Part shown: positions 16,485-51,888 of the stretch, piece by piece
How positions within the stretch are numbered: the stretch's first letter is position 1
How the letters are laid out: the number at the start of each line of letters is the position of its first letter
From: Bacillota bacterium
GTDB lineage: Bacteria; Bacillota_I; Bacilli_A; RF39; UBA660
Direction of reading: 5' to 3'
Length of the DNA: 64,000 bases
Assembly: GCA_015059425.1 (NCBI GenBank)
Contig: SVAM01000009.1
Location: 3,543 to 67,542 of the forward strand
Program-made: the position numbers and the translations under genes
Notes under the pieces: model-generated
What the model was told of the DNA's origin: nothing
The model's database searches: none
What the model saw: only the letters and a program-made list of their open reading frames with translations

Positions 16485-17546
16485 GTGAAAAAAGTAAAGT
16501 TAAAATATGAGTTTTTAGTTACTGGTATATATCCATTTGATGGGGATTATCAAAAAGGTGAATATGTTTTAAAAAAGAATACTATTGATGAAAAGAAATT
16601 TGAAACACATATTAAAGGTGATATTTTATATATAAACCCAATTATTGGATATTGTAGTTATCCATTTAATGGACAAAATGTATATTTGACATTTGAAAAA
16701 GAAGTGGTTACAGAAATTGATATCTCTGATTATAATGAAACAGAAAAAATCAGTGAATTCATAAATAAAATTGACTTGTTAAAAGAGAGTAAAAATTTAG
16801 AGCAAATGTTAGTCTTAGAAATAAATAATAGTATTATTTTTCCAATAAAAATGTTAAAAGTTTATGATTTGGATAATAATTATTTAACAATGAATATCAA
16901 TTTTTCTAAACTAAATGTTCCATCTTTAATTAATTTTGAACAAACTTATAGTATGGAAAAAATAGAACGTCAGAATAATCGAATAACATTTGGATTTAAT
17001 TATGACTTATTAACAGAATTAAAAGAAAAAAATAATTTGTTTGCTAGAGCTTTATCATTATATTATTCTTCTTTCATAGCTAATGATTATAATATCGGAT
17101 TCATATTACTTATTACCGCTTTGGAAACGTTGTTTAATCGAGCTACGTATTCAAAAGTAGAAAAATGTAAAAGTTGTTCACAATTAATTTACGAAATTGC
17201 ATCTTCAGTTTCAAATAATGTTAGTTTAATATTGATGGATGAGTCAGAAACGATTAAGAAAGTTATTAAAGAAAAATATAAAAAAAGAAGTAAATATCTA
17301 CATGGTGAGAAAGTGGAAATCACGTCAAAAGAAGACCAAGAGTTACAAGAGTATGTTAGAAAAGTTTTGTTAATGTACTGGTATATATTCATCAATATAA
17401 AAACAAACGAACATAAAAGCATAATTGCTGAGTTTCAAAAACAAGATTATAAAACTAAATTAACTTATATAAGCTTTTTAAAAGTTTTAGAACTTAAAAC
17501 ATTTGATGAAAAAAAAGATGATATATTACAAGCTTTTATAAAATAA
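16485..17546 (+). CDS. hypothetical protein with HEPN-like Rx4HG motif (Abi-like candidate)
   Basis: GTG start 8 nt after aaggaag. Helical C-terminal half containing KKRSKYLHGEKV (R-x4-H-G). First gene after repeat Z_A. Confidence 0.4.
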   Translation: MKKVKLKYEFLVTGIYPFDGDYQKGEYVLKKNTIDEKKFETHIKGDILYINPIIGYCSYPFNGQNVYLTFEKEVVTEIDISDYNETEKISEFINKIDLLKESKNLEQMLVLEINNSIIFPIKMLKVYDLDNNYLTMNINFSKLNVPSLINFEQTYSMEKIERQNNRITFGFNYDLLTELKEKNNLFARALSLYYSSFIANDYNIGFILLITALETLFNRATYSKVEKCKSCSQLIYEIASSVSNNVSLILMDESETIKKVIKEKYKKRSKYLHGEKVEITSKEDQELQEYVRKVLLMYWYIFINIKTNEHKSIIAEFQKQDYKTKLTYISFLKVLELKTFDEKKDDILQAFIK

Positions 17547-17575
17547 TTACAAAAGAGTAAGGAAGAATAAAAATT

Positions 17576-17950
17576 ATGGAAGTAATATTAGAAAAAATAT
17601 ATAATGATTTATTTGACATAAAAAAAGATAAACATATAGAAAAATTATTAGAACGAGATATTATAAAAATAATATATTTGTTATCTAAATATAAAGACAA
17701 AAAATAGACTTAAAAAAAATTATTGAACATTATAATAAAGAAAGAATTGAAAAATTACTTGGTTTTTCTAATACAACTATTCAAGATAGTTTTATTTGTG
17801 AAAAAGAGACCATGCATTTTACTTATCCAATACAAGAGACATTAAATAGAACAGAAGTGCTTTTCAAAATTACTGGAGAAAAAATGTGGAAAGATATATT
17901 TGGTTTTGATTACGAAATATTATATAGTTAAATTATTGTTATCGTACGCA
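17576..17950 (+). pseudogene. degraded gene fragments (multiple frames)
   Basis: Short ORFs in shifting frames (MEVILEKIYNDLFDIKKDKH...), consistent with a decayed gene. Confidence 0.3.
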
Positions 17951-17955
17951 GGCTA

Positions 17956-18255
17956 ATGTATTATAATGCGTATAAAAGCAATGTAGATGAAGAATTTTGT
18001 AGTAATTATGAAAACGTTTGGGAAAAGTCTTTGAATTGCTTTTTTACAAAAGAAGAATTTTATTCTTTTTTTAGAAATCCGGATGAACAATTAGATAATA
18101 TTTTAAAATTAATTTCAATTGATTTTTATGAACAAAACGAAATTAAATTAGCAATAGATCAAGCAGTTTATAACAATAAATTATTTTTAGCTTATGCTAT
18201 AGGTATTTTACAAAATAGAAATGAATGGGGAACAGAAGAATATGAGTATGTATAA
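17956..18255 (+). CDS. phage-related small protein / fragment
   Basis: 99 aa. C-terminal ...LAYAIGILQNRNEWG resembles DnaD/replisome-organiser-type helices. Uncertain. Confidence 0.3.
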   Translation: MYYNAYKSNVDEEFCSNYENVWEKSLNCFFTKEEFYSFFRNPDEQLDNILKLISIDFYEQNEIKLAIDQAVYNNKLFLAYAIGILQNRNEWGTEEYEYV

Positions 18256-18295
18256 AAACTTGTTCTATTTGTAATAGGATTCATGATATAAATAT

Positions 18296-18617
18296 TAATT
18301 GTAAAAGACCATATAGGTATAAAAAAAGATGTAGCTCTGATAGATTTAGAAGCACGTATGAAGGGAAACAAAAAAGAGAAGAGATTAAGAAAAGAGATAG
18401 ATACTTGTGTTTAGCTTGTTTAAATAATATTAACAATACAAATCATATGTAAAACTATAAAAACTTACAAGTACATCATATAATTTCTATAGAAGAAGAT
18501 TATGATAAAAGACTTAATAGTACCAATTTAATAACTTTGTGTCCGTGTCATCATAAGATGGCTGAACAAAAAGAAATTAGTTTAGAAGTACTATTAAAAT
18601 TAGTACCAAAAGAATAA
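18296..18617 (+). pseudogene. HNH endonuclease pseudogene (phage-type), interrupted by in-frame stops
   Basis: Translation gives ...RYLCLACLNNINNTNHM*NYKNLQVHHIISIEEDYDKRLNSTNLITLCPCHHKMAEQKEI... The HNH Cys/His pattern is broken by stop codons. Confidence 0.6.
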
Positions 18618-18813
18618 CCCCCCCGGAGGGTAGAAGTGTGAAAATAAAATCTTTTTCTCAACCCACAGCCTACCTACATTCACACAATTATAAATTTTCC
18701 GTGAGTTTTTTGGAAAATGGTATACCAATTGGATACTTAGATAAGAATAGTATAGATTAGTAAAGTATAGTATAGAATATATATATTTCATGTTGATGAA
18801 AAAAAGAATAAGT

Positions 18814-19143
18814 TTAACACTCATACTCAATTCTTTTAATTTCTAAAGGATTTTCATTAGTAATAAGTAATGCATATTTAACACGTAATAACTTATAGAA
18901 TTCTGCTTTTACCTTTTCAGAATCTTCTCCGAAATAATTAATTACATCTTTAGCAGAATTATAATGTTGTAGAAAAGAACCTTTATACATAGAATGCGTA
19001 TAATAGGAATTAGCTATATAATAGGCAATAACTTCAGGTATTATATAATTTTCTAAATATTCGTTATAATTATCTGCAAAAGGTTTAAGTAGTTTTTCAA
19101 ATTCCTCGTTACTAATATCGCCATTAATATTTTCTCTAATCAT
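18814..19143 (-). CDS. hypothetical protein
   Basis: ORF with ggaggtg RBS; no recognisable motifs. Divergent from the 19379 operon. Confidence 0.45.
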   Translation of the reverse strand: MIRENINGDISNEEFEKLLKPFADNYNEYLENYIIPEVIAYYIANSYYTHSMYKGSFLQHYNSAKDVINYFGEDSEKVKAEFYKLLRVKYALLITNENPLEIKRIEYEC

Positions 19144-19326
19144 ATACACCTCCAGTTGATTGTATTAATCACTTAATTATTCTATTATTGCAAGATTTAA
19201 TTTGGAAATTAAAAAAATTTATAATAAAAGTGATATAAAACTATGAAATATATAATAAAAATTTATTTTTTAAACAGCAATTTATACAAAATGAAGTACT
19301 ACATTTTAAAAATATAGTACAAATAT

Positions 19327-19355
19327 TTGACAAATATGTTGAAAAGATGTAATAT
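19327..19355 (+). promoter_or_regulatory. near-consensus sigma-A promoter of the 4-gene operon
   Basis: TTGACA (19327-19332) - 17 nt - TAATAT (19350-19355). RBS aaagaggg precedes the ATG at 19379. Confidence 0.6.
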
Positions 19356-19378
19356 AGTCGTAGAAAGAGGGCGTTATT

Positions 19379-19597
19379 ATGAATGAAAAAGAAGAAAGGT
19401 TTATAAGGATTGCTGAAAAAAGGACAAATAAAATATTGGAACAGATAAGATTGTTAAGTAATTGTTCAAATAAAAATAATTATTCTTATGATGATCAACA
19501 AGTTGATAAAATTTTTAAAGCTATTGAGAAAGAGTTAGATTTGGCTAAAAAGAAATATATAATGAATAAAGATAAAAATAAATTTAGTTTGAGGTAA
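19379..19597 (+). CDS. small hypothetical protein (72 aa), gene 1 of candidate system
   Basis: Helical, charged. Its stop lies 4 nt before the next start. Confidence 0.5.
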   Translation: MNEKEERFIRIAEKRTNKILEQIRLLSNCSNKNNYSYDDQQVDKIFKAIEKELDLAKKKYIMNKDKNKFSLR

Positions 19598-19601
19598 TGA
19601 T

Positions 19602-20234
19602 ATGAGTGAAATTGATAAATTAAGAAAAATAAAAGAAATAGATTATGACAGATATGTTGATATAAGTAGTTTAGAAAAAATGGCTGCTTATGCTATCAAA
19701 TATTTAGAAGACAATCAAGTGAACACAACTTGGACGAATGTAGTTATAGCTACATATAGTTTGTTTCCAAGAAGATTTGCAATTAGTGAAGATTTTTTAG
19801 ATTTTCCAAATGCTGAAAGAATTAGTAGAACTTTAATGCATCTGGTTCCACCAAAAGGGAGAAACTATGCGATAGGTAGTAGCAAAATTGATTATGCTTT
19901 AACACCACTTGGAAGGGAAGTTGCTAATGAAGTTGAAATTATTATTAATAGAGAGGCTACAATAAAAAACAGAAAACAAGAAGTTATTTCTTCAATTAAA
20001 ACTACACCAATGACAACTTACACTGATGTTAAGAATTCATCAGAATTTAAACAATATTGTGGTAATAATGAATACTCTGTAGATATGATATGGACTTTAT
20101 ACAAAGTAATACCATTTACACAACAAGATAAAATATTAAAAAAATTAGTTAGTGCTTTAAGATTTTCACAGGAATGTGGAGATGTTAAATGTGAAGAATT
20201 TATTAGTAAAATGATAAATTCAATTCAAAAGTAG
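19602..20234 (+). CDS. hypothetical protein (210 aa), gene 2 of candidate system
   Basis: RBS gaggt; no recognisable motifs. Confidence 0.55.
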   Translation: MSEIDKLRKIKEIDYDRYVDISSLEKMAAYAIKYLEDNQVNTTWTNVVIATYSLFPRRFAISEDFLDFPNAERISRTLMHLVPPKGRNYAIGSSKIDYALTPLGREVANEVEIIINREATIKNRKQEVISSIKTTPMTTYTDVKNSSEFKQYCGNNEYSVDMIWTLYKVIPFTQQDKILKKLVSALRFSQECGDVKCEEFISKMINSIQK

Positions 20235-20247
20235 GGAAGTGATTTAT

Positions 20248-22407
20248 ATGACAGATGTACAATCTTTTATTATTGAAGATTCAGCCAGAAAAAAACTCAT
20301 GGATCAAAAAAATATTTTTGGTCAAAATTTTGTAGAAATGCTTGCTGAAATTATTACAAATGCAGATGATAGCTATTCTAGAATAGAAGATAATACTGGA
20401 GATTATTCTCCTAAAAAAATTGATATCTATTTTGACAGAAGAAAAGACGAATTTACTGTAGTTGATTTTGCTGAAGGTATAGGTGAAAATGAATTAATAA
20501 AAATTTTCAGAAAATATGCAGATGATACTTCTAATACGAATGCAACAAATAAGGTGCGTGGCATGTTTGGTAGAGGTGCCACAGACGTTATGATAGAATC
20601 ATCATTAGTTGGTAAAGAAAATTTTTTGATATCGTTTAGGGATGATGAATCCACAAGACTTGTGTTTAAGTTTGACGAAAACAATAATAAAACATTTACC
20701 AGAGACACATTGACTGAAGAAGAAATAAGATTTTTTAGAAATGAATATAACATTACCGAAAATGGAACGATTGTAAGATTTGGTACAGGAAGAAAATATC
20801 CAAAAGATGTTATTGGTGCAATTGAAGATTATTATATGCTAAGATTTATTTTTGATAATGAAAACAGAAAAATAATATTTCATGATTTAAATGAAGAAAC
20901 AGAAAAACAATTACAAAATGATATGTCTTATTTTGATTATTGTGATGTATTGTGTGAGGAATCATTTGATATTAAATATAAAAATTATAAGTTAAAAGCT
21001 AATTTAAAAATAGTAAATAATCCGAACAAAATATCAAATCATTATATTTTGATATATGATGAAAAAAAAGCTGTTTATGATGATTCTAATTTTAACAGAG
21101 CCACAGAAGCAGGAATAGATAAGATTGAAGGTAGACTTGAGATAATTAATTTAACAACATTTGCTAAACAAATGATGAATGAATTTGGAGAAACAATAAT
21201 AACTCCAACTCGTGATGGATTTGAAACGAAAAATGATTTCTATAAAGACTTGAAAAATAAAGTAGACAAATATATTATTAATGCCTGTGCTATGGTATCA
21301 CAATCAACAGAAAAATCTCAATCAGGTTTAAGAGATAGAAAAGAATGGCGCAATTTCTTTAAAGATATTAATAAATATTTTAAAGATGAATTAGATACAA
21401 TTATTGATGGTGGTGAGGGCGATACAATAAAAGAACCTCCAGAAGAAGGTATTAAATTTGCTAGAAACAGTATTCCTGTTAAAATTGGTAAACATTACTT
21501 AATTAAATTATTGATTAATCCTAATTTAATTACTCTAGGAAGTTTAATTCAAATCCAACATGAAGGTGAATATATAACTCTAGCTCAAGATAAAATTATA
21601 TTTACTAATAATGGAGGAGAAGAAGTCCCTTCGGTATTAGTTGATATTCTCGGCTTAGAAAATACACCGGAACAACAATTTATTACTGCACATTGTGGAA
21701 TTTACGAAGCTAATTTATATTATGATGTTAGAGATGAAGAAGTTCACTTGCCAGCATATGGTTTTGATTTTTTTCCAAATGAATTAAGAAAAAAACCAGA
21801 GGTTACTAGAACAGCTACAATGTATGTTGATACTAACAAATTTGAAATAGGATCTATTATTGAAATTGAAAACAATAATAGTGAAATTGAATTAGAATAT
21901 GAGAACATCGTTATAAGCACGGAACAATTAGTAAATGATAATATAGCTAAAATAAGTCTTAATATTTCTGGTGGTATATTAGGTAAAACCTATTATATTA
22001 GTGCTATGTTAAATGCTAGAAAAATTGAATTTCCAATTATAGTACAGGAGAAAGATGATACAACAAATAATAAAACAGGTATTATTAATGATATACTTCC
22101 AAAAGAATCCCCGGTTAACTATGTACAAAGTTACTACGATAATGATAGAAATATAATCATAGTATCAAATAACGTTGCTAATAAACAACAAATCTCAACT
22201 TGGTTAGAAAAGAAAGAATATGCTACTATTGCAGAAAAATTTGCATTCTATAGTATTTTATCAGAAGAGCTTGCTAGAATAATGATAAGAGAAAAAAGTA
22301 GAAAAGATAAAATTGCAATATCATCAGATCCAGATGAGTTTTTCAGAGTAATAAGTGAAGAAAAAGATAAAATGTATAAGATGCTTTTAAAATCTTTTGA
22401 GGAATAG
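20248..22407 (+). CDS. GHKL (HSP90/sacsin/MORC-type) ATPase-domain protein, 719 aa, gene 3 of candidate system
   Basis: Bergerat-fold boxes: N-box EIITNADDSY, G1 DFAEGIG, G2 GMFGRGATD. The C-terminal ~500 aa are uncharacterised. Confidence 0.6.
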   Translation: MTDVQSFIIEDSARKKLMDQKNIFGQNFVEMLAEIITNADDSYSRIEDNTGDYSPKKIDIYFDRRKDEFTVVDFAEGIGENELIKIFRKYADDTSNTNATNKVRGMFGRGATDVMIESSLVGKENFLISFRDDESTRLVFKFDENNNKTFTRDTLTEEEIRFFRNEYNITENGTIVRFGTGRKYPKDVIGAIEDYYMLRFIFDNENRKIIFHDLNEETEKQLQNDMSYFDYCDVLCEESFDIKYKNYKLKANLKIVNNPNKISNHYILIYDEKKAVYDDSNFNRATEAGIDKIEGRLEIINLTTFAKQMMNEFGETIITPTRDGFETKNDFYKDLKNKVDKYIINACAMVSQSTEKSQSGLRDRKEWRNFFKDINKYFKDELDTIIDGGEGDTIKEPPEEGIKFARNSIPVKIGKHYLIKLLINPNLITLGSLIQIQHEGEYITLAQDKIIFTNNGGEEVPSVLVDILGLENTPEQQFITAHCGIYEANLYYDVRDEEVHLPAYGFDFFPNELRKKPEVTRTATMYVDTNKFEIGSIIEIENNNSEIELEYENIVISTEQLVNDNIAKISLNISGGILGKTYYISAMLNARKIEFPIIVQEKDDTTNNKTGIINDILPKESPVNYVQSYYDNDRNIIIVSNNVANKQQISTWLEKKEYATIAEKFAFYSILSEELARIMIREKSRKDKIAISSDPDEFFRVISEEKDKMYKMLLKSFEE

Positions 22408-22411
22408 TAAA

Positions 22412-24175
22412 ATGGTTTTCTATTATTATAATCTAGATACTCTTGTTGAAAGTTATTTTGATAATGTAAGAATTATTAATATTTTACATAATAATGGGAT
22501 TAAAAATTTATATGATTTGTTTGTGTGTGATATTAATGAAGTATTAAACTCAAATGCATGCGGAAATAAAAGTAAGAGTATTATAGAAGAAACTTTTTAT
22601 TATTTACAAGCATTAGCAAGAAATAAATTTGATACTACAAAGATATATGAAAAATATGATTATTTATTAAATGATATGATTATTGTTTCAAGAAATTCAG
22701 ATAACGGAGAATTAAAAACAGAAGTATTATTTAAAAGATTCCTAGAAATATATGAGTTAGAAAAATTATCCCCCAAAGATTTTGTTAATTCAAATATGAT
22801 AATTCAATTTCTTGAGGTTTATGAGGGTAGTGCACCGTTAGATTATATTAGTCAAGAAACATCAAAATTTAAAAATTATAAAGAAGCTTACGCTTATTTA
22901 AATGATATTATTAATAATAATAAAGCCGATAAAGCAAATATTTTTAAAAGATATAATGGTATTTTCGTTGAAAGAGAAACATTAGAAGAAATAGGTAAAG
23001 ATTTTGGTGTAACAAGAGAAAGAATAAGACAAATTAATAAACGTACTACAGAAAAAATATATAACGCACTAGATACTATATATAGAAAAATAAAAAATAC
23101 ATTTGATAAAGCTTATTACATCCCTTTATCAAATCCAATGTTAAGAATATATTGTGAATATTTATATGAAAGAGGTTTTTTAAAACTAGAAAGAATTTTC
23201 GATGAAAAGGTTTATGTTAGAAACGAAGAATTAATAAATATAGTTAATAAAATAGAAATAGCTCTTGAAGAAAATAATGTATATAGTGATGAAATGGATA
23301 GAAATGTTTTAAAACTCTTTGAAAAAAAATATTTAATTAAGGATGGTAAAATCCTAAAGAATAATACGTTAATTAATTATGTTCCAATGGTTCTAGATGA
23401 AATAGGAAGAGCAGTAAATTTAAATAGTGAAAATGATGTTAATCTGATTTATGACATTTTAGAGCGAGAATATAGTGTAACCACAGAATATAAGGATTCA
23501 AGAAATATTGAGAGAGTATTAACAGATACAAGTATATTAATTGATTCAAGGACTTATATTTCCGAAAAATATCAAAAGAAAGCAGATATGACTGAAGTTT
23601 TTGAATACATAGAAAAAAGTGAAGTTACAAATGCTCAAATTATTTATTCAACTTTCATAAAATTATGGAATAATATTGATATATATAGTCATGTGGGTGT
23701 ATATGGATATTTAAAATATTTTTATCCTAATAAATATAATTATGCAGGAAGAAGTTTCCTTATAAATGTAATTGGCAAAAGTACAACTTGGGGGGAGATT
23801 GTAATTGATATGATTAAAGAAAAAAAGGCCCCAGTAACGTTTAACTCGGTTAATGAATTATATCCGGCATTAAATAATATGATATGGATAAATCTTGAAG
23901 CAAACTTTACTGATTTAATATTTTGGGGAGATAATTCATATTATTGCAATAGTATGTTAAAACTTAGTCCTGAAGATATGAGTTTTATTACTATTTATAT
24001 TTATAACAATGGAACAGTTACAGATAAAGATTTATATACTTACATATTAAATAATAAGGAGTATATAATTCACGATAATTATTTACATAGCGAAAAACAA
24101 TTATTAAAATTTATCAAAGTTAAGTTTGATGGGGTTATTAATTATAATTCTGACTTGAGAACTTATTATATATAA
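22412..24175 (+). CDS. protein with RNAP alpha-CTD-like HhH and sigma-70 region-4-like HTH, gene 4 of candidate system
   Basis: N-terminal VRIINILHNNGIKNLYDLFVCDINEVL (alpha-CTD-like). Mid-protein LEEIGKDFGVTRERIRQINKRTTEKIYNAL (sigma70 r4 HTH). Start overlaps the upstream stop. Confidence 0.55.
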   Translation: MVFYYYNLDTLVESYFDNVRIINILHNNGIKNLYDLFVCDINEVLNSNACGNKSKSIIEETFYYLQALARNKFDTTKIYEKYDYLLNDMIIVSRNSDNGELKTEVLFKRFLEIYELEKLSPKDFVNSNMIIQFLEVYEGSAPLDYISQETSKFKNYKEAYAYLNDIINNNKADKANIFKRYNGIFVERETLEEIGKDFGVTRERIRQINKRTTEKIYNALDTIYRKIKNTFDKAYYIPLSNPMLRIYCEYLYERGFLKLERIFDEKVYVRNEELINIVNKIEIALEENNVYSDEMDRNVLKLFEKKYLIKDGKILKNNTLINYVPMVLDEIGRAVNLNSENDVNLIYDILEREYSVTTEYKDSRNIERVLTDTSILIDSRTYISEKYQKKADMTEVFEYIEKSEVTNAQIIYSTFIKLWNNIDIYSHVGVYGYLKYFYPNKYNYAGRSFLINVIGKSTTWGEIVIDMIKEKKAPVTFNSVNELYPALNNMIWINLEANFTDLIFWGDNSYYCNSMLKLSPEDMSFITIYIYNNGTVTDKDLYTYILNNKEYIIHDNYLHSEKQLLKFIKVKFDGVINYNSDLRTYYI

Positions 24176-24190: not shown

Positions 24191-25429
24191 TTAATCTTCT
24201 TTTTTTATTATATTTTCAATCTCTTCTCCAATTTTTTCAATAATACCTACAACTAATGCATTACCCATCATAAAATTTCTCTTTTTTTGAGTCATTCCTG
24301 TGTTTGTCCAATTATCAGGAAATCCGTTTATTCTTTCACATTCAATAGGTGTTAATAGTCTTGGCTTTTTTGTTCTTAAATCTTCAATAACATGAGTTGT
24401 TCGGCTAACGCCACCTTCGCTAGTAAGCATTGTTCTAGCTGGAGCATCTAGGTTGTCAGGGAAAGGCATTGCCCCTTCACTATAGTAATAAGGCTCGCCA
24501 TTAGGTTTAACTCTTGGTATTTTTTTGCTTCCTTTTAAAAATATAAATTTTTCGATTTGAACATCAGATAAGAAATATTTTTCTTCAACTTCATTTTCTT
24601 CTCTAATTTTTCTTAATGGATATACTAAATTATAATCAGCTCTTGTTTTTACTGTATATATACCGCCATCAGCCATAATACCTGCATTATAGAATTCGCA
24701 TTTAAACATGTTACTAACTTCTATTAGATCCTTATATTCTTTTATACTTGATTTAGTTATTGCTTCATAAGCATCTTTGATAGGGAATTGTTTTACAAAT
24801 AACCCTTTTTTAAAAATGACATCTCTATCATTTAAGTTTCTCATTTCTTTATAGTAATTGGTAGATTTGTGATATGCAAAAATATAGGTTCTTCTTCTTT
24901 TTTGTGGCAGACCATATTCACCAGCATTTATAACTCTCCATTGAACATCATAGCCGTTTTCATAGAAACTCCTTAATATCATTCCGAAATCTCTTCCCCT
25001 TTGTTTTGCGGGAGAAAGTAATAATCTATCTACGTTTTCTAACAAAACAAATGGAGGTTGCTTAATAGCTAGGATTTCTTCGATAGCCCACCAAAGGACC
25101 CCTTTTTTTCCTTCAATACCTTTGCTATTTGATAATGTTTGCGCTACTGAATAATCTTGGCATGGAAATCCACCAACTAATAAAGTGTGGTCTGGAATTT
25201 CTTTTTTATCAACTTCAAATATATCGACATTGCTAACATCTTTAAAACCAAATCTTGTTCCGTAACAAATATATGCATCTTGAGTTTTAGTAGCAGGTTC
25301 CCATTGATTTGCCCAAACAAATTTCCAATTTCCGTTTTCTTCAACTTTATTATCTATTAATGTAACCTTATTTAATCCGCATCTAAAACCACCAACACCA
25401 GCAAATAGTTCTACACATGTTTTTTTCAT
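24191..25429 (-). CDS. DNA (cytosine-5)-methyltransferase, M.Sau3AI-like
   Basis: 412 aa. Motif I FAGVGGF, motif IV GGFPCQDYS, ENV motif. Same length as M.Sau3AI and adjacent to the Sau3AI-like endonuclease. Confidence 0.85.
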   Translation of the reverse strand: MKKTCVELFAGVGGFRCGLNKVTLIDNKVEENGNWKFVWANQWEPATKTQDAYICYGTRFGFKDVSNVDIFEVDKKEIPDHTLLVGGFPCQDYSVAQTLSNSKGIEGKKGVLWWAIEEILAIKQPPFVLLENVDRLLLSPAKQRGRDFGMILRSFYENGYDVQWRVINAGEYGLPQKRRRTYIFAYHKSTNYYKEMRNLNDRDVIFKKGLFVKQFPIKDAYEAITKSSIKEYKDLIEVSNMFKCEFYNAGIMADGGIYTVKTRADYNLVYPLRKIREENEVEEKYFLSDVQIEKFIFLKGSKKIPRVKPNGEPYYYSEGAMPFPDNLDAPARTMLTSEGGVSRTTHVIEDLRTKKPRLLTPIECERINGFPDNWTNTGMTQKKRNFMMGNALVVGIIEKIGEEIENIIKKED

Positions 25430-25484
25430 TTATATACCTCCTATTTATTGTGAAAAATCGTTATATATATTATAATATAGTTAG

Positions 25485-25541
25485 TTGTAAAGATCAACCA
25501 TGCAATTAGTATTATAACTTAATTTTGTTAAAAGATCAACT
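25485..25541. promoter_or_regulatory. divergent R-M promoter region with two direct repeats containing GATC
   Basis: ttgtAAAGATCAACc (25485-25499) and ttgttAAAAGATCAACt (25526-25541). A third GATC lies at 25583, near the RBS. Confidence 0.4.
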
Positions 25542-25600
25542 TTTCTTAATAATATTTTACTATAAATTTGAAATTAAAACAAGATCGAAAGGAGAATTTT

Positions 25601-26989
25601 GTGAAAAAAGGTAGACATTATTTGGTAGATGAAATTGCTTTTATAGCTCAAACTGCAATTGGAAAATCCTTTAGAGAAATTAGGGATGCAGATATAGTAA
25701 CGCTTGAAGATGATAAAGTTACTAAAGGATCTTTGGGTGGAATAGTGGAGGAGGCATTATTCGGAATTGAAGCTAACGGTGATTCAGCACCAGATTTTAT
25801 TGATGCTGGTGTAGAATTAAAAGTAACTCCTTATAAAAAAAATAAAAATAACACTCTTTCTGCAAAAGAAAGATTAGTATTAAATATAATCGATTACATG
25901 ACTGAATATAAGAATGAATTTTTTTCGAGTCATTTCTGGTATAAAAATAATCTATTAGAAATAATATGGTATCTTCATGAAGATGGTAAAGACAAACTTG
26001 ATTTAAAAATTACTAATGAAATTTTAATGGATTTATCTGAAAGCGAAGACATTAAGCAAATAGAACAAGACTGGTATACGGTTATAACCAAAATAAAAGA
26101 AGGTAAGGCTCATGAAATATCAGAGGGAGATACAATGTATCTTGGGGCTTGTACTAAAGGCGAAAATTCCCTATCATATCGCAGACAACCATTTAGTAAT
26201 ATGATGGCAATGCAAAGAGCATTTTGCTTTAAACAAAGCTATATGACGCAGTTGGTTAGAAAATATATTGGAGATTATTCTAATGTTGAGAAAATATTAA
26301 CAAATACTGAGCAAACATTTGATGAGTTTGTAAATAATGTAGTTAATAAATATAAGGGTAAAACTCAAAGTGAATTAATGGAATTATTTAATATTGAATC
26401 ATCCGCTAAAAATATAAACTCTATTATTGTTAGTCGAATGTTTGGGGTTAAAGGTAGCTTAAATGAAACAGAAGAATTTTTAAAAGCTAACATTATCCCA
26501 AAGACTGTTAGGATAGAAGAAAATGGAAGAATCAAAGAGTCAATGTCTTTTCCAGCTTTTAAGTATATTGAGATAATAAATCAAGAATGGGAAACATCAG
26601 AATTAAGGGAAAGTTTAGAATCGACTAAATATTTATTTTTTGTTTTTAGAATGGATAATAATGAATATGTATTTAAAGGAATTAAATTGTGGAATATGCC
26701 GGAATTAGTAATAGATAATGAAGTTCAAATTATGTGGCAAAAAACCGTTGATATTATAAAGAGTGGTAATATAGTGAAATCTATCACTAATGGTATTAGG
26801 GAAACTAATTTTCCAGGAGTTGCGCAAAATAAAGTGTGTCATGTTAGACCTCACGCAAGAGATGCACAAGATACATATCCATTACCAGTTGTTGATAAAT
26901 TAACTGGATTAACAGATTATACTAAACATTGTTTCTGGTTTAATAGGGGTTATTTAGAAGAAATATTAGAAGAGTATATTAATGAATAA
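25601..26989 (+). CDS. type II restriction endonuclease, Sau3AI family (GATC)
   Basis: GTG start after aaaggaga. Strong similarity recalled from R.Sau3AI: AGVELKVTPYKKNKNNTLSAKERLVLNIIDYM; EGKAHEISEGDTMYLGACTKGENSLSYRRQPFSNMMAMQRAFCFKQSYMTQLVRKYI. Duplicated MutH-like architecture. Confidence 0.8.
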   Translation: MKKGRHYLVDEIAFIAQTAIGKSFREIRDADIVTLEDDKVTKGSLGGIVEEALFGIEANGDSAPDFIDAGVELKVTPYKKNKNNTLSAKERLVLNIIDYMTEYKNEFFSSHFWYKNNLLEIIWYLHEDGKDKLDLKITNEILMDLSESEDIKQIEQDWYTVITKIKEGKAHEISEGDTMYLGACTKGENSLSYRRQPFSNMMAMQRAFCFKQSYMTQLVRKYIGDYSNVEKILTNTEQTFDEFVNNVVNKYKGKTQSELMELFNIESSAKNINSIIVSRMFGVKGSLNETEEFLKANIIPKTVRIEENGRIKESMSFPAFKYIEIINQEWETSELRESLESTKYLFFVFRMDNNEYVFKGIKLWNMPELVIDNEVQIMWQKTVDIIKSGNIVKSITNGIRETNFPGVAQNKVCHVRPHARDAQDTYPLPVVDKLTGLTDYTKHCFWFNRGYLEEILEEYINE

Positions 26990-27102
26990 AATACATTAAT
27001 AAGCTGTAAAACTGGATAAAATTATGATATAATATAAATATGAGAATAGAGCATAATTTCATTTTTAATAATGGAATATGCTTTTTTTGATTGGAGGTAA
27101 CT

Positions 27103-28584
27103 ATGAATAAATTAACTAGAGTTAACGAATATTTAAATGTTTCTGAGAAAGATTTAGAAGAATTGGGTGTTTATAATGGATATGCTAATATAGATTCTGA
27201 ATTATATATTAATCCAAAATTATTAATAGATTGTGAAATAGATGAATTTAAAAATTCTTATAATAAAATTACCAATCATTTTGAAAAAATAATTGAACTT
27301 TTAAGAAAAAGTGAAAAAGCATCAAAAGATGATTTGATGTGGAATCTTGCATTAAAGTTATTTTGTTTTCCTGAACCTAATGGGGTTGCACTGGGTACAT
27401 CTGGATTATCAATAAATGGAAACGGTTTAAGCGGAGAAACAGCAGAGAGTGCATTATTAAAATTAAAAGAAATGATTGATAACGACATAGATGATCCACA
27501 AATTTTTGGGATGTTGGCGCTTATTCAAAAGAATATAGGCGTTGATCGTATAAGTGATATGATAAGCAATATAATATATGATGATTTATTACTTTATACC
27601 GAAAATGTTATACAAAAATTAAATATTACATCTTGTGTTGAAGTAGAATATAATAAAAAACAATATAAAATAAAAATTAGAGAAAATGGTTCAAATTTAA
27701 TACTTATTCCAAAGAAAATATTAAGTAATATTCCACCTTTTGTTGATTATCATTCTATCCAAGATATAATAGATGAAAATGTAAAAATAAAACAACAAAT
27801 TTACGAGATGTTTTATGAGATAAATAAGAAATTAAAAAAGAAAAAAGTTTCTCAAGTAAACATAAAAGATTTAGATAAAGACCAAGTTTATGAGATTATT
27901 AATAAATTTAATTTACATAGAATAATTTTAGATGCAAGTTCTAATATTAATGTAGAACCTTATGATTTTGAAACAGATGTTGAGGGCATTCATAAACCGA
28001 TAGAAAAGATAACAAATTTAATTGCAAAAAAGGAACAACAAGTTTTAGGTAATATTTTAAAAATGAGAAATGAAAATTTTTCTGAGTTAGTAGAAGATTT
28101 AATTAACAATTATAAGTTTATTATTGAAAATAAAGGATTAAATCAAGACTTATATCATAAAGTTCCTACAAAAACAGGTAAATATTATTATAGACCTAAA
28201 CATGAAGGTGTATCTCATCGCTTATTCATTGCTACATTAGAAAATACAAAACAAATTTTTAACTATGATTATACTTACGAACCTAAATCTTCAAACGGAG
28301 AAGTAGATTTTAGATTTTATCGTAATGGTGAAGTTATTGTAGTTGAATTTAAACTAAGTACTAACAAGTTAAAAGATGGATATGATAAACAATTAGTTGA
28401 ATATATGAAAAGAGAAAAGAGTGATAAAGGGTATTATGTGATAATTAAAGTAAAAGATGATAACGCAATTGATAATTTTCTAAAAAATACAAAAATCACA
28501 AATAATAGACCTATTGTAGTAGTAGATGGATTATTAAAATCTAGTCCATCACATTTGCACTCTGAAGAATCGGAGGAAATGTAA
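27103..28584 (+). CDS. hypothetical protein with C-terminal PD-(D/E)xK nuclease-like motif
   Basis: RBS ggaggt. C-terminal GEVDFRFYRNGEVIVVEFKL (D...ExK) followed by QLVEYMK. N-terminal 350 aa unassigned. Confidence 0.5.
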   Translation: MNKLTRVNEYLNVSEKDLEELGVYNGYANIDSELYINPKLLIDCEIDEFKNSYNKITNHFEKIIELLRKSEKASKDDLMWNLALKLFCFPEPNGVALGTSGLSINGNGLSGETAESALLKLKEMIDNDIDDPQIFGMLALIQKNIGVDRISDMISNIIYDDLLLYTENVIQKLNITSCVEVEYNKKQYKIKIRENGSNLILIPKKILSNIPPFVDYHSIQDIIDENVKIKQQIYEMFYEINKKLKKKKVSQVNIKDLDKDQVYEIINKFNLHRIILDASSNINVEPYDFETDVEGIHKPIEKITNLIAKKEQQVLGNILKMRNENFSELVEDLINNYKFIIENKGLNQDLYHKVPTKTGKYYYRPKHEGVSHRLFIATLENTKQIFNYDYTYEPKSSNGEVDFRFYRNGEVIVVEFKLSTNKLKDGYDKQLVEYMKREKSDKGYYVIIKVKDDNAIDNFLKNTKITNNRPIVVVDGLLKSSPSHLHSEESEEM

Positions 28585-28938
28585 ATGAAGAAATTTATGT
28601 TTGATTTAATAGCATCACCATTATCATTGTTTGAAAATCAACTTTACAATTATGTTGCCATGGCAATTATAGGATTTATAGCATTTAAAATAGCTTTTAG
28701 TACGGTTGGAGATTTAGGATTAAGAGGAGAGGCCGGTTCAATAGCCCATTGGATAATAAGATTTTTTGTTTTTGTATTTATATGGTTTATATGTTGTGTG
28801 GCAATTACCTTAATTACATTTATTATTAACAACTGGATTATTATTACGATTAGTGCTATATTGCTATTAGTAATATACACTTTAAAGATATATGCAAATA
28901 AGAATCCAGAAAGCATATTAAACAAAAAAATATTATAG
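28585..28938 (+). CDS. small 3-TM membrane protein, translationally coupled to the upstream nuclease-like gene
   Basis: Stop and start abut (gtaaATG). Three hydrophobic helices. Confidence 0.5.
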   Translation: MKKFMFDLIASPLSLFENQLYNYVAMAIIGFIAFKIAFSTVGDLGLRGEAGSIAHWIIRFFVFVFIWFICCVAITLITFIINNWIIITISAILLLVIYTLKIYANKNPESILNKKIL

Positions 28939-47095: not shown

Positions 47096-47302
47096 ATGGA
47101 TAAAACATTTAAATTAAATGATATAGTAATAATGAAAAAACCACATGCTTGTGGAACCAATGAATGGCAAATCATAAGAATGGGCGTGGACATAAAAATA
47201 AAGTGTTTAAATTGTGGACGTGAAGTAATGATTGATCGTTTAGAATTTACAAAAAAACTTAAAAAAGTAATAGGAGGAAATAATGAGAAAGAGATCAATT
47301 AA
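47096..47302 (+). CDS. DUF951-family small protein
   Basis: MDKTFKLNDIVIMKKPHACGTNEWQIIRMG... with a CxxC pair; conserved downstream of spo0J in Firmicutes. Confidence 0.8.
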   Translation: MDKTFKLNDIVIMKKPHACGTNEWQIIRMGVDIKIKCLNCGREVMIDRLEFTKKLKKVIGGNNEKEIN

Positions 47303-48830
47303 GGATCGAATAACATTAGATCCTATAATGACATTAATTGTATTAATAATAGGGACTTTAGTTTTAAGTGGATTTCTGTCACTTTTAGGAGTTCAAGTTA
47401 CTTATAATACAATTGCAAATGATATAACAATTGAATATACTCAAAGCTTAGTAAGTGTAGACTCATTGTTTAACTTAAGCGGTTTAAAATACATATTTAC
47501 TAATACTGTTTCAAACTTTGTATCATTCACCCCTTTATCAAGTTTAATAATTATACTAATTGGTATTGGTGTAATGGAAAAAAGTGGTTTTTTGAAAACC
47601 ATAATTACTTTGCTAACCAAAAAAGCTAAAAAGAAAAATGTAACATATGCAATTGTATTAATATGTTTATTATCAAGTATAATGGGTAATTTGCCATATG
47701 TAATAATGATACCATTAAGCGCCTTAATATTTGAGTATGGTAGACGTAATCCTTATATAGGGATTATAGCATCTTTTGCAGCATTAAGTGCAGGTACAGG
47801 ATTAAGTATATATCTAACTGGGACTGACTCAGAATTATTAACAAGCACTTTACTAGGATCACATATGTTAAACCCTTCATATAGTTTAGGAACAGGATCA
47901 TTTTTCTTAATAATGTTAGTAGCAATTATCATATTATCAATTGTTATAACAATAATTACAGAAAACTATATTGCACCTAGATTACCTAAGTATGAATTTC
48001 AAGAAACGGATATAGAAGAAGAATTAATTATTACTAAAAAAGAGTTAAGAGGATTAATAATTGCAGGTTTTGCAGGTATATTATATTTATTATTCTTTAT
48101 TTATTGTATAATTCCAGGCTTACCATTATCTGGAGCACTACTTGATTATTCAAAAGAATTATATATAGACATGTTGTTTAGCCCAACATCATTCTTTAGT
48201 CATGGATTTGTATTTATAGTAACAATGTTCTTTGTTATATTAGGTTTGTTTTATGGAATTGGAGCCAAAACAATAAAAAATAATAAGGATTTATGTGATG
48301 ATTTAGGTCATAGTTTAGATGGGGTAGGAAAGACATTAGTATTAATATTTTTTGCCTCAATATTTATAAGTGTATTTAAAAGAACAGGAATAGGCATAGT
48401 TATAACTGCCGGCTTAGCTAATTTATTAACAATAGAATCTTTAGGAGCTTTTCCTTTAATAATAATATTGTTTATAATAAGTGCTTTATCAACAATTGTA
48501 TTACCTAATTCGACTATGAAATGGGGAATAATGGCAAGTATTGCAGTTCCAACATTAATGAATGTAGGAATATCACCAGAGTTTATACAAGTTATATTTA
48601 GATTTGGTGAATCGGTTACAATGGGATTAACTCCATTAATGGCATATTATGTAATTTATCTTGCATATTTAGAAAAATATAATCAAGATAAAAAACCAAT
48701 AAATTTATTTCAAACATTAAAATATCAATATCCATACACTATAGTTATTGCAGGCATTTTATTATCTTTATTAATAGTATGGTTTATAATAGGATTACCA
48801 ATTGGAATAGGTGGAGTAACAAGAATATAA
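47283..48830 (+). CDS. AbgT-family transporter
   Basis: 515 aa polytopic. Similarity to AbgT recalled at the N-terminus and the C-terminus (...GLPIGIGG). Confidence 0.6.
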   Translation: MRKRSIKDRITLDPIMTLIVLIIGTLVLSGFLSLLGVQVTYNTIANDITIEYTQSLVSVDSLFNLSGLKYIFTNTVSNFVSFTPLSSLIIILIGIGVMEKSGFLKTIITLLTKKAKKKNVTYAIVLICLLSSIMGNLPYVIMIPLSALIFEYGRRNPYIGIIASFAALSAGTGLSIYLTGTDSELLTSTLLGSHMLNPSYSLGTGSFFLIMLVAIIILSIVITIITENYIAPRLPKYEFQETDIEEELIITKKELRGLIIAGFAGILYLLFFIYCIIPGLPLSGALLDYSKELYIDMLFSPTSFFSHGFVFIVTMFFVILGLFYGIGAKTIKNNKDLCDDLGHSLDGVGKTLVLIFFASIFISVFKRTGIGIVITAGLANLLTIESLGAFPLIIILFIISALSTIVLPNSTMKWGIMASIAVPTLMNVGISPEFIQVIFRFGESVTMGLTPLMAYYVIYLAYLEKYNQDKKPINLFQTLKYQYPYTIVIAGILLSLLIVWFIIGLPIGIGGVTRI

Positions 48831-48857
48831 TATCAGTTTAAAGCTGATATTTTTTAA
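48829..48857 (+). terminator. intrinsic terminator after abgT
   Basis: aatatcag-tttaaag-ctgatatt followed by ttttt. Confidence 0.6.
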
Positions 48858-48886
48858 TTGCAATAAAATAATTAAATTGTTATAAT
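48858..48886 (+). promoter_or_regulatory. consensus sigma-A promoter driving the retron ncRNA
   Basis: TTGCAA - 17 nt - TATAAT; predicted TSS about 48893. Confidence 0.6.
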
Positions 48887-48891
48887 ACAGG

Positions 48892-49068
48892 AAAGCAGTA
48901 GATTTATCTAATTTATTTAGATAGAAAGACGAGTCGTCTGTTCGAAAAGAATTTATTATACATATTTGCTTATATTGTACGAAGTAGAGCGCCTAAAGGC
49001 TATAGTATATTTCCAATATACTTATCTACATCTTAACAATACAAGATAATTTTAAAGTACTGCTTTTT
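48892..49068 (+). ncRNA. retron msr/msd-like non-coding RNA
   Basis: Perfect 9-nt inverted repeats a1 AAAGCAGTA (48892-48900) and a2 TACTGCTTT (49058-49066) flank about 160 nt with multiple hairpins. The RT gene follows immediately. Confidence 0.55.
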
Positions 49069-49083
49069 TTAAAGGTGATTAAA

Positions 49084-50025
49084 ATGTGGAAATATTTAAC
49101 TAAGGAGCATAAAAAAGAATTTATATTATCCCTAAATTTAATAGGTGGTAAATTTTCTGATACAGAAAAATTAAATATTTTATATGCTATAAGTAACAAT
49201 AGTGAAAAATACTACACAACTAAATATATAAATAAGAAAGATGGAACTAAGAGAGAATTATTAGTACCAAATAAAACATTAAAAAATATTCAAAAAAATA
49301 TCTTAAATAATGCTTTAAATGATTTAGAAGTATCTAAATATGCATGTGCTTATATTAAAAACAAATCTTTAAAAGATAATGCGAGTCCACATATAAATCA
49401 AAAAGTGGTATTAAAATTAGATATAAAAGATTTTTTTACAAGTATTACATTTGAAGAAATATACAAAGTAATACCTAATGAGTTATTCCCGACATCTATA
49501 AAAGTATTAATGTTAAAGCTATGTACATATTACGATTATTTACCTCAAGGAGCACCAACCAGTCCTTATTTATCAAATTTAGTATTAAAAAACTTTGATA
49601 ATTATATAGGAACATATTGTAAAGAAAGAAATATTAATTACACAAGATATTGTGATGATTTAACCTTTTCGGGAGATTTTGACGTGAAGAAATTAAAAAA
49701 CAAAGTTCAAGCTTTCTTAGAAGAAATAGGTTATAATTTAAATGATAAGAAGACAAAAGTTATAAAAAATAATAAAAGACAAATAGTAACAGGTTTAGTA
49801 GTTAATGAGAAAGTTAATATACCAATATCTTATCGCAAAAAAATAAGGCAAGAAATGTACTATATTAATAAGTATGGAATTGACAGTCACTTAAAATATA
49901 TAAATAATACTAATAAAGAAAAATATATCAACAGTCTAAAAGGCAAAATTAATTATTGTTTAAATATTAATCCAAATAATACAGAATTTCAAAGTTATTT
50001 AAAAAAATTAAATAATTTGTTATAA
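49084..50025 (+). CDS. retron-type reverse transcriptase
   Basis: 313 aa. RT motifs LPQGAPTSPYLSNL (motif 4), YTRYCDDLTFSG (motif 5, YxDD), IVTGLVVN (motif 7). The size and the upstream a1/a2 ncRNA fit a retron RT. Confidence 0.75.
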   Translation: MWKYLTKEHKKEFILSLNLIGGKFSDTEKLNILYAISNNSEKYYTTKYINKKDGTKRELLVPNKTLKNIQKNILNNALNDLEVSKYACAYIKNKSLKDNASPHINQKVVLKLDIKDFFTSITFEEIYKVIPNELFPTSIKVLMLKLCTYYDYLPQGAPTSPYLSNLVLKNFDNYIGTYCKERNINYTRYCDDLTFSGDFDVKKLKNKVQAFLEEIGYNLNDKKTKVIKNNKRQIVTGLVVNEKVNIPISYRKKIRQEMYYINKYGIDSHLKYINNTNKEKYINSLKGKINYCLNINPNNTEFQSYLKKLNNLL

Positions 50026-50056
50026 TATTTTTACATATCACTGGAGGTATTATAAA

Positions 50057-51157
50057 ATGAGTTTAAAAGCAGGAATAGTAGGACTACCAAATGTTGGAAA
50101 ATCAACTTTATTTAATGCAATAACAAAGAAAAATATTTTAGCGGCAAATTATCCATTTGCAACAATAGATCCAAATGTTGGAATGGTAACAGTGCCAGAT
50201 GAAAGATTAACATACTTAGAAGAGTTATATATGCCTAAAAGTACAGTACCAACAACATTTGAATTTACTGATATTGCAGGTCTAGTAAAAGGAGCAAGTA
50301 AAGGAGAAGGTTTGGGTAACAAATTCTTAAGTCATATAAGAGAAACAGATGCTATAGTGGAAGTAGTAAGATGTTTTGATGATGAAAATATTACTCATGT
50401 AGAAGGTAAGACTGATCCAATAAGAGATATAGAAATCATTAATTTAGAATTAATTTTTGCAGATTTAGAAATAATTGAAAATAGACTTAATAAGATAATT
50501 AAAAAGGCAGAAACAACAAAAGATAAGGATGCAGTATTGGAAGTTAGTACTTTAACTAAATGCAAAGAAAGTTTAGAAAATAATATTCCACTTAGAAGAG
50601 TAGAATTTAGTGAAGAAGAATTACTTGTTATGAAACCCTTTAACTTTATAACTTTAAAACCCTTAATATATGCTGCAAATGTTACTGAAGAAGATTGTAT
50701 TATAGGTGATAATGATTATACTTTAAAAGTTAAAGAGTATGCAGATAAGGAAAATAGTAGTGTAATAGTAATGTGTGCTAAAATGGAATCAGAATTATCA
50801 GAATTAAGTGATGAAGATAAAAAAGTATTTCTTGAAGAACTAGGTATAGCTAACAGTGGTTTAGATAGACTTATATTTGCAACATATAATCTTTTAGGCT
50901 TAGAAACATTCTTTACTAGTGGGCCAGATGAATGTCGTGCCTGGACTTTTAGGAGTGGTATGAATGCTAAATCATGTGCTGGTATAATTCATAGTGATAT
51001 TGAACGTGGTTTTATTAAAGCAGAAGTTACAAGTTTTGATGATTTAAAAGAATATGGAACAGAATTAAAAGTAAAAGAAGCTGGTAAATTAAGATTAGAA
51101 GGTAAAGATTATTTAATGCAAGATGGCGATATAGTATATTTTAGATTTAATGTATAA
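50057..51157 (+). CDS. ychF: redox-regulated ATPase YchF
   Basis: GIVGLPNVGKSTLFNAIT; TGS domain at the C-terminus. Confidence 0.93.
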   Translation: MSLKAGIVGLPNVGKSTLFNAITKKNILAANYPFATIDPNVGMVTVPDERLTYLEELYMPKSTVPTTFEFTDIAGLVKGASKGEGLGNKFLSHIRETDAIVEVVRCFDDENITHVEGKTDPIRDIEIINLELIFADLEIIENRLNKIIKKAETTKDKDAVLEVSTLTKCKESLENNIPLRRVEFSEEELLVMKPFNFITLKPLIYAANVTEEDCIIGDNDYTLKVKEYADKENSSVIVMCAKMESELSELSDEDKKVFLEELGIANSGLDRLIFATYNLLGLETFFTSGPDECRAWTFRSGMNAKSCAGIIHSDIERGFIKAEVTSFDDLKEYGTELKVKEAGKLRLEGKDYLMQDGDIVYFRFNV

Positions 51158-51246: not shown

Positions 51247-51888
51247 ATGAATAAATTAATGTCAAAAACATTTTTATGGATGTTTCTAGGTTTAATAGTA
51301 ACATTTATGACAGGTTATATTGTTGCAATTAACGAAAATATGCTTGAGACTGTATTTGGAGGGCCGTTATTTTATATATTAATAATTTTAGAATTAGTAT
51401 TAGTAATATTTTTTTCTGCAAGAGTACACAAGATGCAACCAACTACTGCTAAGATATGTTTCTTATTATATTCATTTGTTAGTGGTTTAACTTTTTCAAG
51501 TATATTTATAGCATTTGAATTAAGTTCTATAATGTTTGTATTTTTAATTGCAGCATTAGTATTTGCAATATTTGGAGCATTAGGTTATTTTACTAAAATT
51601 GATTTAAGTAAACTAGGAACTATATTATTTATGGGACTTATTGCTATTATAATATGCATGATTGTAAACATGTTTTTAAGCAATTCAACATTTGATTTAA
51701 TAATATCAATTATAGCATTATTAGTATTCTTTGGATATGTAGCATTTGATATCCAAAAAATAAAAAGATATTATGAAGCAGGAATTGACAGTGAAAATGT
51801 TGCTATATTAGGAGCATTTGAATTATATTTAGATTTTATAAATATATTTATCCATTTATTACAAATTATTGGAGACGCAAAAGATTAA
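51247..51888 (+). CDS. Bax-inhibitor-1/YccA-family membrane protein
   Basis: 213 aa, 7 TM, C-terminal ...YLDFINIFIHLLQIIG. Confidence 0.7.
   Translation: MNKLMSKTFLWMFLGLIVTFMTGYIVAINENMLETVFGGPLFYILIILELVLVIFFSARVHKMQPTTAKICFLLYSFVSGLTFSSIFIAFELSSIMFVFLIAALVFAIFGALGYFTKIDLSKLGTILFMGLIAIIICMIVNMFLSNSTFDLIISIIALLVFFGYVAFDIQKIKRYYEAGIDSENVAILGAFELYLDFINIFIHLLQIIGDAKD

Follow-up and report, generated by a model that had tools for sequence, protein, structure and literature searches.

A compact retron cassette between abgT and ychF

The window studied here is a 64,000-nt stretch of a gut Bacilli metagenome-assembled genome (MAG; Bacillota bacterium, GTDB RF39, UBA660), namely positions 3,543–67,542 of the forward strand of contig SVAM01000009.1 (GenBank assembly GCA_015059425.1). 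At window positions 48858–50025 it carries a compact, AT-rich cassette of 1.17 kb, composed of a putative promoter, a structured noncoding RNA (ncRNA), and a reverse transcriptase (RT) gene, which we identify as a retron. Pfam matches placed the cassette between a gene for an AbgT-family transporter (47283–48830; 3.5e-95), itself preceded by a DUF951 gene (47096–47302), and ychF (50057–51157), which is followed by a gene for a Bax1-I protein (51247–51888). The original prediction had described a retron at this place, with a consensus promoter (TTGCAA-17-TATAAT), a structured ncRNA bounded by 9-nt a1/a2 inverted repeats, and a retron-sized RT open reading frame (ORF) bearing the motifs QGAPTSP, YCDD, and VTGLVVN. 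We recovered all of these, together with the two flanking genes, and the repeats are perfect complements of each other. The parts of the cassette are as follows.

48858–48886, plus strand: putative retron promoter; TTGCAA (48858–48863), 17-nt spacer, and TATAAT (48881–48886) with a TG-n extended −10
48892–48900, plus strand: a1, the 5′ arm of the a1/a2 inverted repeat, AAAGCAGTA
48901, plus strand: predicted branching (priming) guanosine, the G directly 3′ of a1
48903–48925, plus strand: msr hairpin 1, a 9-bp stem in the minimum free energy (MFE) structure
48927–48939, plus strand: msr hairpin 2 (AGACG-AGU-CGUCU, with a CGAGUCG apex) in the MFE structure
48953–49057, plus strand: msd, the predicted template of the multicopy single-stranded DNA (msDNA); ~105 nt, a long imperfect hairpin
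49058–49066, plus strand: a2, the 3′ arm of the inverted repeat, TACTGCTTT, the exact complement of AAAGCAGTA
49084–50025, plus strand: retron RT, 313 amino acids (aa), start codon ATG at 49084, ribosome binding site GGTGA at 49074–49078

The reverse transcriptase resembles that of Ec107

The RT was taken to start at ATG 49084, which is conserved in relatives, rather than at the upstream GTG 49075. Besides QGAPTSP (residues 155–161), YCDD (189–192), and VTGLVVN (235–241), it has the region X motif NASPH (99–103), and its catalytic and retron-specific residues were invariant or nearly so in 27 homologs. The protein matched Pfam RVT_1 (1.3e-24), and its best PADLOC model was RT_Ec107-like, at full length (422 bits, 3.1e-127), followed by the RT_III-A models (360 bits, 4e-108). 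In NCBIfam, the retron St85 RT model scored 229.6 bits, slightly below its cutoff of 235, and group_II_RT_mat reached 71 bits (7.5e-20) against a cutoff of 300; matches to Drt2 and Drt3a were also weak. The top matches among solved structures were all retron RTs (Ec86 at 1e-35, Kva2, Ec67, Ec78, and Ec83), and those outside retrons were a group II maturase (1e-8) and Drt2 (2e-7). Retron models outscored all others in PADLOC, NCBIfam, and the solved structures, which agrees with the earlier assignment of this RT to retrons rather than to introns of group II, to diversity-generating retroelements (DGRs), or to Abi systems.

As the reference for Ec107 (Retron-Eco5), the founding member of a stand-alone branch of retron RT clade 2, we used the E. 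coli pyrE–slmA locus (L084). The Ec107 RT (319 aa) and the RT of the window were 39% identical throughout (309 aa, E 1e-91), and both have a YCDD box, the Ec107 variant of the usual YADD (PMC6868368). Judged by hidden Markov model scores and pairwise identity, the RT groups with Ec107 over other retron types.

The noncoding RNA has a conserved structure

The RNA spanning 48887–49072 (186 nt) folded at −43.4 kcal/mol (z = −4.5; 0 of 200 shuffles equaled it) into a closing stem, small 5′ hairpins, and a single long 3′ hairpin. With G-U pairs the a1/a2 stem can be extended to 12 bp (48889–48900 with 49058–49069), and the msd folded as DNA at −11.8 kcal/mol (z = −2.8). When the 253-nt spacer was shuffled with its dinucleotides preserved, 30% of the shuffles held a perfect inverted repeat of at least 9 nt, so the 9-nt repeat alone is weak evidence; the retron geometry (a 5′ arm followed by G, and a 3′ arm ending at most 25 nt from the end of the spacer) occurred in 1.4% of shuffles. 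We regard the comparative evidence, and not the repeat alone, as the decisive support for a retron ncRNA.

Scanning for RT relatives with one genome per species yielded 80 loci with RTs 43%–73% identical to that of the window. Their hosts were mostly gut Bacilli MAGs and Lachnospiraceae, with a few Enterobacterales (Pragia, Budvicia, and Leminorella) as well as Neisseria, Enterococcus, and Vagococcus. Allowing for over-extended mechanical ORF starts, the RTs were ~310–340 aa, that is, RT only. An a1/a2 stem and the following G were found upstream of the RT in most of the 81 sequences (the window and the 80 loci), with the stem kept while its sequence varied, so that the repeats and ncRNA proved to be conserved at homologous loci. 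Typically in the family, a G comes directly after a 5′ arm that ends in ...CA(A/G/C)(T/C)A, the remaining stem sequence varies (e.g., AAAGCAGTA, GAGCAATA, CAGCAGACA, and CCGGGGACA), and the arms lie 120–205 nt apart. The first msr hairpin was seen in relatives with differing sequence (by visual inspection of the alignment, with no formal scoring), and the CGAGTCG of the second was invariant in 10 close loci and is also present in E. coli Ec107.

From the 10 closest sequences, RNAalifold recovered three helices: the a1/a2 stem, the CGAGUCG-tipped hairpin, and the lowest part of the msd stem. A covariance model (R1) built from these 10 sequences was used to search 1.03 Mb of loci. In 43 sources, the window among them, it found a single full-length match directly 5′ of the RT and on the same strand, and only four weak matches fell elsewhere (E >0.5). 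In the R1 alignment, which was fitted to the model structure, 96.6% of cells paired, compared with 73.9% in shuffled and 32%–46% in slid controls, and 19 of 21 pairs had compensatory changes. Such changes were seen in all eight modeled pairs of the a1/a2 stem (97.7% of cells paired) and in five of seven pairs of msr hairpin 2 (99% of cells paired), and all six pairs at the base of the msd stem covaried.

R1 also detected the E. coli Ec107 msr–msd end to end (L084 2859–3038; 40 bits, E ~8e-6). By eye, a 17-nt 5′ arm ending in GCAATA is followed in the Ec107 RNA by G and by two hairpins, of which the second is tipped with GCGAGUCGC. Shared by the two retrons are a 5′ arm ending in ...CA(A/G)TA before the priming G, ~157–159 nt between the arms, two msr hairpins of which the second has the CGAGUCG apex, and a long msd hairpin. 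The R1 alignment put G48901 of the window on Ec107 G2869 (the G after the Ec107 a1 arm) and the base 5′ of the Ec107 3′ arm on window position 49057. The Ec107 msDNA is 107 nt by retron nomenclature; its RNA we take to be 75 nt with the branch at G18, which fits the 17-nt 5′ arm followed by G at L084. The start of the window msd at 49057 comes from retron geometry, and its end at 48953 was transferred from Ec107 and is approximate. We infer priming at G48901, synthesis of an msDNA with these ends, and use of the promoter. The TATAAT of the putative promoter was invariant in all 12 close loci, 5–6 nt ahead of the a1 repeat. Promoter-like matches in general were not enriched locally (19, compared with 14.9 ± 4.2 expected from shuffles).

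The retron is vertically inherited at a fixed site

We found an identical RT protein on at least 23 metagenome contigs, in the same context every time. Comparison of orthologous abgT–ychF regions covered 11 related gut Bacilli lineages (the window, eight species-level genomes, and two reached via YchF proteins, including relatives of 'Mycoplasma sp. CAG:776'), and the retron lay between abgT and ychF in all of them. Within this clade, the flanking proteins were 75%–90% identical to those of the window and the RT 61%–73%. The synonymous divergence (pS) of the RT tracked that of its flanks in the informative pairs (0.30 vs. 0.33 and 0.42; 0.42 vs. 0.50 and 0.54), and the ratio of nonsynonymous to synonymous substitution rates (dN/dS) of the RT was 0.13–0.24. 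No empty abgT–ychF site occurred among the relatives listed (YchF at least 84% identical), a range that included no outgroup. Among viral contigs, the best relative was 40% identical, with no sign of phages carrying this retron lineage.

Co-divergence with the flanks, the fixed site, and a dN/dS of 0.13–0.24 show that the retron is old, vertically inherited, and maintained by purifying selection, and not a recent insertion. The original prediction of a discrete insertion between the abgT terminator and ychF needs qualifying, with no empty site seen and the retron present in 11 of 11 lineages.

Several related loci differ in detail. On a metagenome contig of a CAG:776-like lineage (L085 4217–4978), the RT at the abgT–ychF site was called at 253 aa instead of 310, and an upstream MscS-like gene is likewise split; the short RT could be a frameshift, an assembly error, or a case of occasional decay. 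Two lineages have additional ORFs beside the retron: L006 (4612–5779, equal to L088 2583–3765) has ORFs of 309 and 89 aa between abgT and the ncRNA, and L009 has a 361-aa ORF upstream of the retron (4466–5551) and a 177-aa GNAT acetyltransferase ORF (6947–7480) between the RT and ychF. As candidate lineage-specific effectors, these ORFs were rejected: they had no defense or retron-effector match and are not common between lineages. Since they are unshared, the abgT–ychF site evidently also takes other insertions. In L004 (5457–5808) and L005 (4307–4659), the spacer between abgT and the ncRNA is ~350 nt longer with no ORF called, giving 545 nt from abgT to the RT start, compared with 254 nt in the window. 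A further retron (L012 150–1261), whose RT is 54% identical to that of the window and whose ncRNA closely resembles the window ncRNA (AAAAGCAGTA ahead of the G; 140 bits with R1), lies in a different gene context on a 5.6-kb contig binned as Muribaculaceae; after it come a 434-aa ORF and a 656-aa gene, both without annotation (the gene UvrB-like by eye). Either this contig is mis-binned or the retron lineage has moved at least once.

No effector is linked to the retron

BLAST clustering of the genes flanking the RT (four per side) in the 81 sequences gave no recurrent neighbor family beyond local synteny, and no phosphoribosyltransferase (PRTase) or other retron-effector model recurred among the 139 immediate neighbors of the 72 non-syntenic loci (PADLOC and Pfam). 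The commonest neighbor family was DHDPS (four of 139), a housekeeping enzyme common to related Lachnospiraceae. Genes tightly coupled 3′ of the RT at other loci varied (GNAT, choline-binding protein, AAA-ATPase/PD-(D/E)XK, response regulator, and topoisomerase-like). There was no PRTase-like or winged-helix gene beside the RT in the window or in the 80 related loci, and no retron effector was among the PADLOC and Pfam families listed for the 64-kb window. AbgT and YchF had no PADLOC defense-model match; we considered and rejected either as a general effector, as the association is seen in a single syntenic clade and the two genes belong to the constrained core.

The original prediction was thus right that no effector is apparent. 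Such a lack is to be expected, however, as it is a published defining trait of the Ec107 (Retron-Eco5) branch: These members of RT clade 2 are stand-alone msr–msd–RT cassettes with no associated effector (Mestre et al. 2020, PMC7736814). Ec107 was left out of a 2020 defense screen. By its description in the 2026 SPIRE survey preprint (10.64898/2026.05.14.725207), the group clade2_Ec107like, with an Ec107-like RT and ncRNA and mostly from Bacillota, is the one to which the window retron belongs; the preprint gives 192 members, of which 178 are from Bacillota and 91% are host-associated, reports no recurrent accessory module, and rates the group low in novelty.

A few family members do have defense genes nearby. 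AbiQ/ToxN-type toxins accounted for two of the 139 neighbors (Pfam and PADLOC) and for three loci in a BLAST cluster (e.g., L055 5088–5603), and DpdF-like, SspH, and PDC-S04 neighbors were also seen in a few loci. Most loci lie among housekeeping genes.

Transcriptional context of the cassette

Two further features frame the cassette, the first of them outside the retron.

48829–48858, plus strand: abgT intrinsic terminator, a 10-bp hairpin (48829–48851) and a T run after it, folding as RNA at −8.2 kcal/mol (z = −2.3)
49998–50026, plus strand: promoter-like site of ychF (extended −10, TGTTATAAT) that overlaps the RT gene at its end

A hairpin of the form ATCAG...CTGAT with a T run recurs 5′ of the retron promoter in related loci, and it is plausible that this element terminates abgT transcription and forms the left boundary of the retron unit. 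On the right, the RT stop codon and ychF are separated by 32 nt free of any terminator. This gap was −3 to 70 nt in 10 of the 11 lineages, with the stop and start codons overlapping in L007 and L011, and in L009 the GNAT ORF intervenes. The extended −10 of ychF was kept in 11 of 11 lineages, 25–30 nt 5′ of the ychF ATG and at or just past the end of the RT gene. The retron transcript probably reads through into ychF. The cassette is slightly lower in GC content (21%–24%) than its flanks (25%–30%).

A 31-nt direct repeat (48857–48887 and 49997–50027, 81%) brackets the retron, and we considered whether it could be a target-site or promoter duplication made on insertion. This was ruled out: Both copies are extended −10 promoters (TGTTATAAT/TTGTTATAATA), one of the retron and one of ychF, and each keeps its position in relatives. 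Another short repeat (D2) does not run collinear with the 31-nt repeat.

Proposed mode of action and alternative explanations

Very probably, the cassette is an Ec107-type (Retron-Eco5) stand-alone retron of RT clade 2 that is functional, has no adjoining effector, is inherited vertically at the abgT–ychF site, and is kept by purifying selection. Its general mechanism is presumed to follow that of the structurally solved reference Retron-Eco1 (Ec86), the closest solved RT, with an a1/a2 stem, a branching G that primes through its 2′-OH, and a hairpin in the msDNA. Transcription would start from the sigma-70-type promoter at or just before the 5′ repeat arm, and a single RNA would carry the msr, the msd, and the RT message. 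Pairing of the repeat arms would bring G48901 beside the 3′ end of the msd. The RT would recognize the msr hairpins, with hairpin 2 and its CGAGUCG apex the likely determinant, prime on the 2′-OH of G48901, and copy the msd leftward from 49057 to ~48953. Trimming of the template by host RNase H would leave a branched RNA–DNA with ~105 nt of hairpin-forming single-stranded DNA, the reverse complement of the msd, starting opposite 49057. Our best guess is that the RT–msDNA complex acts with a host-encoded or unlinked partner and is not inert.

Several points weigh against this explanation. The msDNA of this retron is a prediction, and its predicted ends rest partly on the lengths taken for the Ec107 RNA and DNA. 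Fitting the R1 alignment to the model structure somewhat inflates the covariation numbers, although the margin is large. With E values up to 10 allowed, an Rfam scan of 48700–50200, the check suggested along with the original prediction, returned only two chance matches (mir-465 and plastid psbM) and none to a retron or an intron. The RT is under looser constraint than the flanking core genes (YchF dN/dS 0.03–0.07). Finally, the effector search covered 64 kb of the genome, and an unlinked effector is possible.

In one refinement of the explanation, the cassette is part of a complete defense retron, with its effector supplied in trans or with an ordinary host protein that the RT–msDNA complex restrains serving as effector. 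We hold this to be possible but tentative. Retrons of known function need an effector, according to the introductions of published papers; Mestre et al. raise a trans-acting effector as an option for the Ec107 branch (PMC7736814), and the purifying selection on the element and the AbiQ/ToxN, DpdF, and SspH neighbors of a few family members fit such a role. However, most genomes with orphan retrons are without homologs of known retron-associated proteins (Mestre et al., PMC7736814), no effector was among the families listed for the 64-kb window, family neighbors are mostly housekeeping genes, and Ec107 was omitted from the 2020 defense screen. We consider it doubtful that the retron was co-opted for a role outside defense, in housekeeping or stress, perhaps with a link to ychF, which is probably transcribed along with it. 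This would account for its residence and co-divergence at one core-genome site in 11 lineages and for the short, terminator-free gap before ychF; in addition, Ec107 expression rises in starvation and stationary phase (review, PMC6868368), and domestication has been suggested for vertically inherited clades (Mestre et al., PMC7736814). Yet ychF retains its own conserved promoter, its universal housekeeping product YchF is strongly constrained, no other family member adjoins ychF, and spacing is generally tight in this compact genome, where DUF951 and abgT, and likewise parA and parB, overlap. In the furthest form of this reading, the retron of these small-genome gut Bacilli would have ceased to be an accessory defense element and would now be a fixed, origin-proximal module of the core genome that is transcribed into ychF and has a housekeeping or stress-signaling role or a universal host partner such as YchF. 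We think this unlikely; if it were true, effector-less retrons would gain a function distinct from toxin sequestration.

There is little to recommend the view that the cassette is a decaying, non-functional remnant of a type III-A retron that has lost its PRTase-like effector. The Ec107 branch and PRTase-linked RTs do join at one node, and it has been proposed that the associated protein was lost (Mestre et al., PMC7736814); RT_III-A models were the second best in PADLOC, and the RT of L085 is truncated at 253 aa. But the remaining 10 lineages have an intact ORF, the RT dN/dS and the invariance of catalytic and retron-specific residues speak of constraint, compensatory changes keep the ncRNA helices, and the promoter −10 is invariant. 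Almost no weight can be given to the idea of an RT from some other class (group II intron, DGR, Abi, or DRT) preceded by an inverted repeat that arose by chance in AT-rich DNA. Chance does produce such a repeat in ~30% of shuffles, and NCBIfam gave the weak group II (7.5e-20), Drt2, and Drt3a matches noted above; still, retron models score far higher, the Rfam scan found no group II intron RNA in 48700–50200, and the ncRNA covaries and R1 cross-detects Ec107. For a DGR, one would look for a template/variable repeat pair, and there was none, nor any direct repeat longer than 31 nt in 48780–50120.

Relation to known retrons and significance

Like Ec107, the window retron is an RT-only cassette with an upstream msr–msd; both are flanked by housekeeping genes, and neither has a mobile element or an effector close by. 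The two differ in host (a gut Bacilli MAG compared with Gammaproteobacteria), in the length of the a1/a2 stem (9 nt compared with ~17 nt), and in base composition, the window locus being very AT-rich (~22%–28% GC). Ec107 is followed by the convergent slmA, whereas the window RT is followed after 32 nt by the co-directional ychF. Ec107 is also variable in its presence (382 of 5426 complete E. coli genomes), whereas the window retron was found in every related lineage sampled. Type III-A retrons, which combine an RT with a PRTase-like effector and a winged-helix protein, are the sister RT lineage and provided the second-best PADLOC models; both they and the Ec107 branch belong to RT clade 2 (Mestre et al., PMC7736814), and neither of the two accessory genes adjoins the window RT. 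Ec86 is a prophage-borne retron of type II-A3 whose effector is nucleoside deoxyribosyltransferase-like, whereas the window retron has neither effector nor prophage context.

The class, its ncRNA, its lack of an effector, and its abundance in host-associated Bacillota are already known. What is new here is modest: the fixed abgT–ychF position and the vertical inheritance in a clade of small-genome gut Bacilli. Neither the fixed position nor co-divergence with the flanks is described for clade2_Ec107like in the accessible text of the SPIRE preprint. What effector-less Ec107-type retrons do is a question dating from 1992, and a minimal cassette at a fixed site, co-diverging with its flanks under purifying selection, argues for usefulness without a linked toxin. 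The 11 orthologous ncRNA/RT pairs provide a set for structure–function work. The 1.17-kb AT-rich cassette may also be of interest for retron editing in low-GC Firmicutes, because clade 2 retrons are reported to be among the highest producers of RT-DNA when expressed in E. coli (10.1101/2024.01.25.577267).

Defense-related genes elsewhere in the window

A type II restriction–modification pair lies ~22 kb 5′ of the retron (24191–26986). It consists of a C-5 cytosine methyltransferase on the minus strand (24191–25426; Pfam 1.2e-61) and a MutH/Sau3AI-like restriction enzyme on the plus strand (25568–26986; PADLOC REase_II 8.9e-103). Adjoining it are two overlapping genes (20239–24172), one for a 722-aa GHKL-type ATPase (HATPase_c_3, weak) and one for a 592-aa protein with a sigma-70 region 4-like helix-turn-helix and a weak MzaA-like match. 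Together with unannotated ORFs at 16452–20231 and 27091–28935, these genes may form a small defense island. The PADLOC families listed across the window also include PDC-S05, PDC-S72, PDC-S23, and a RhuM-family protein.

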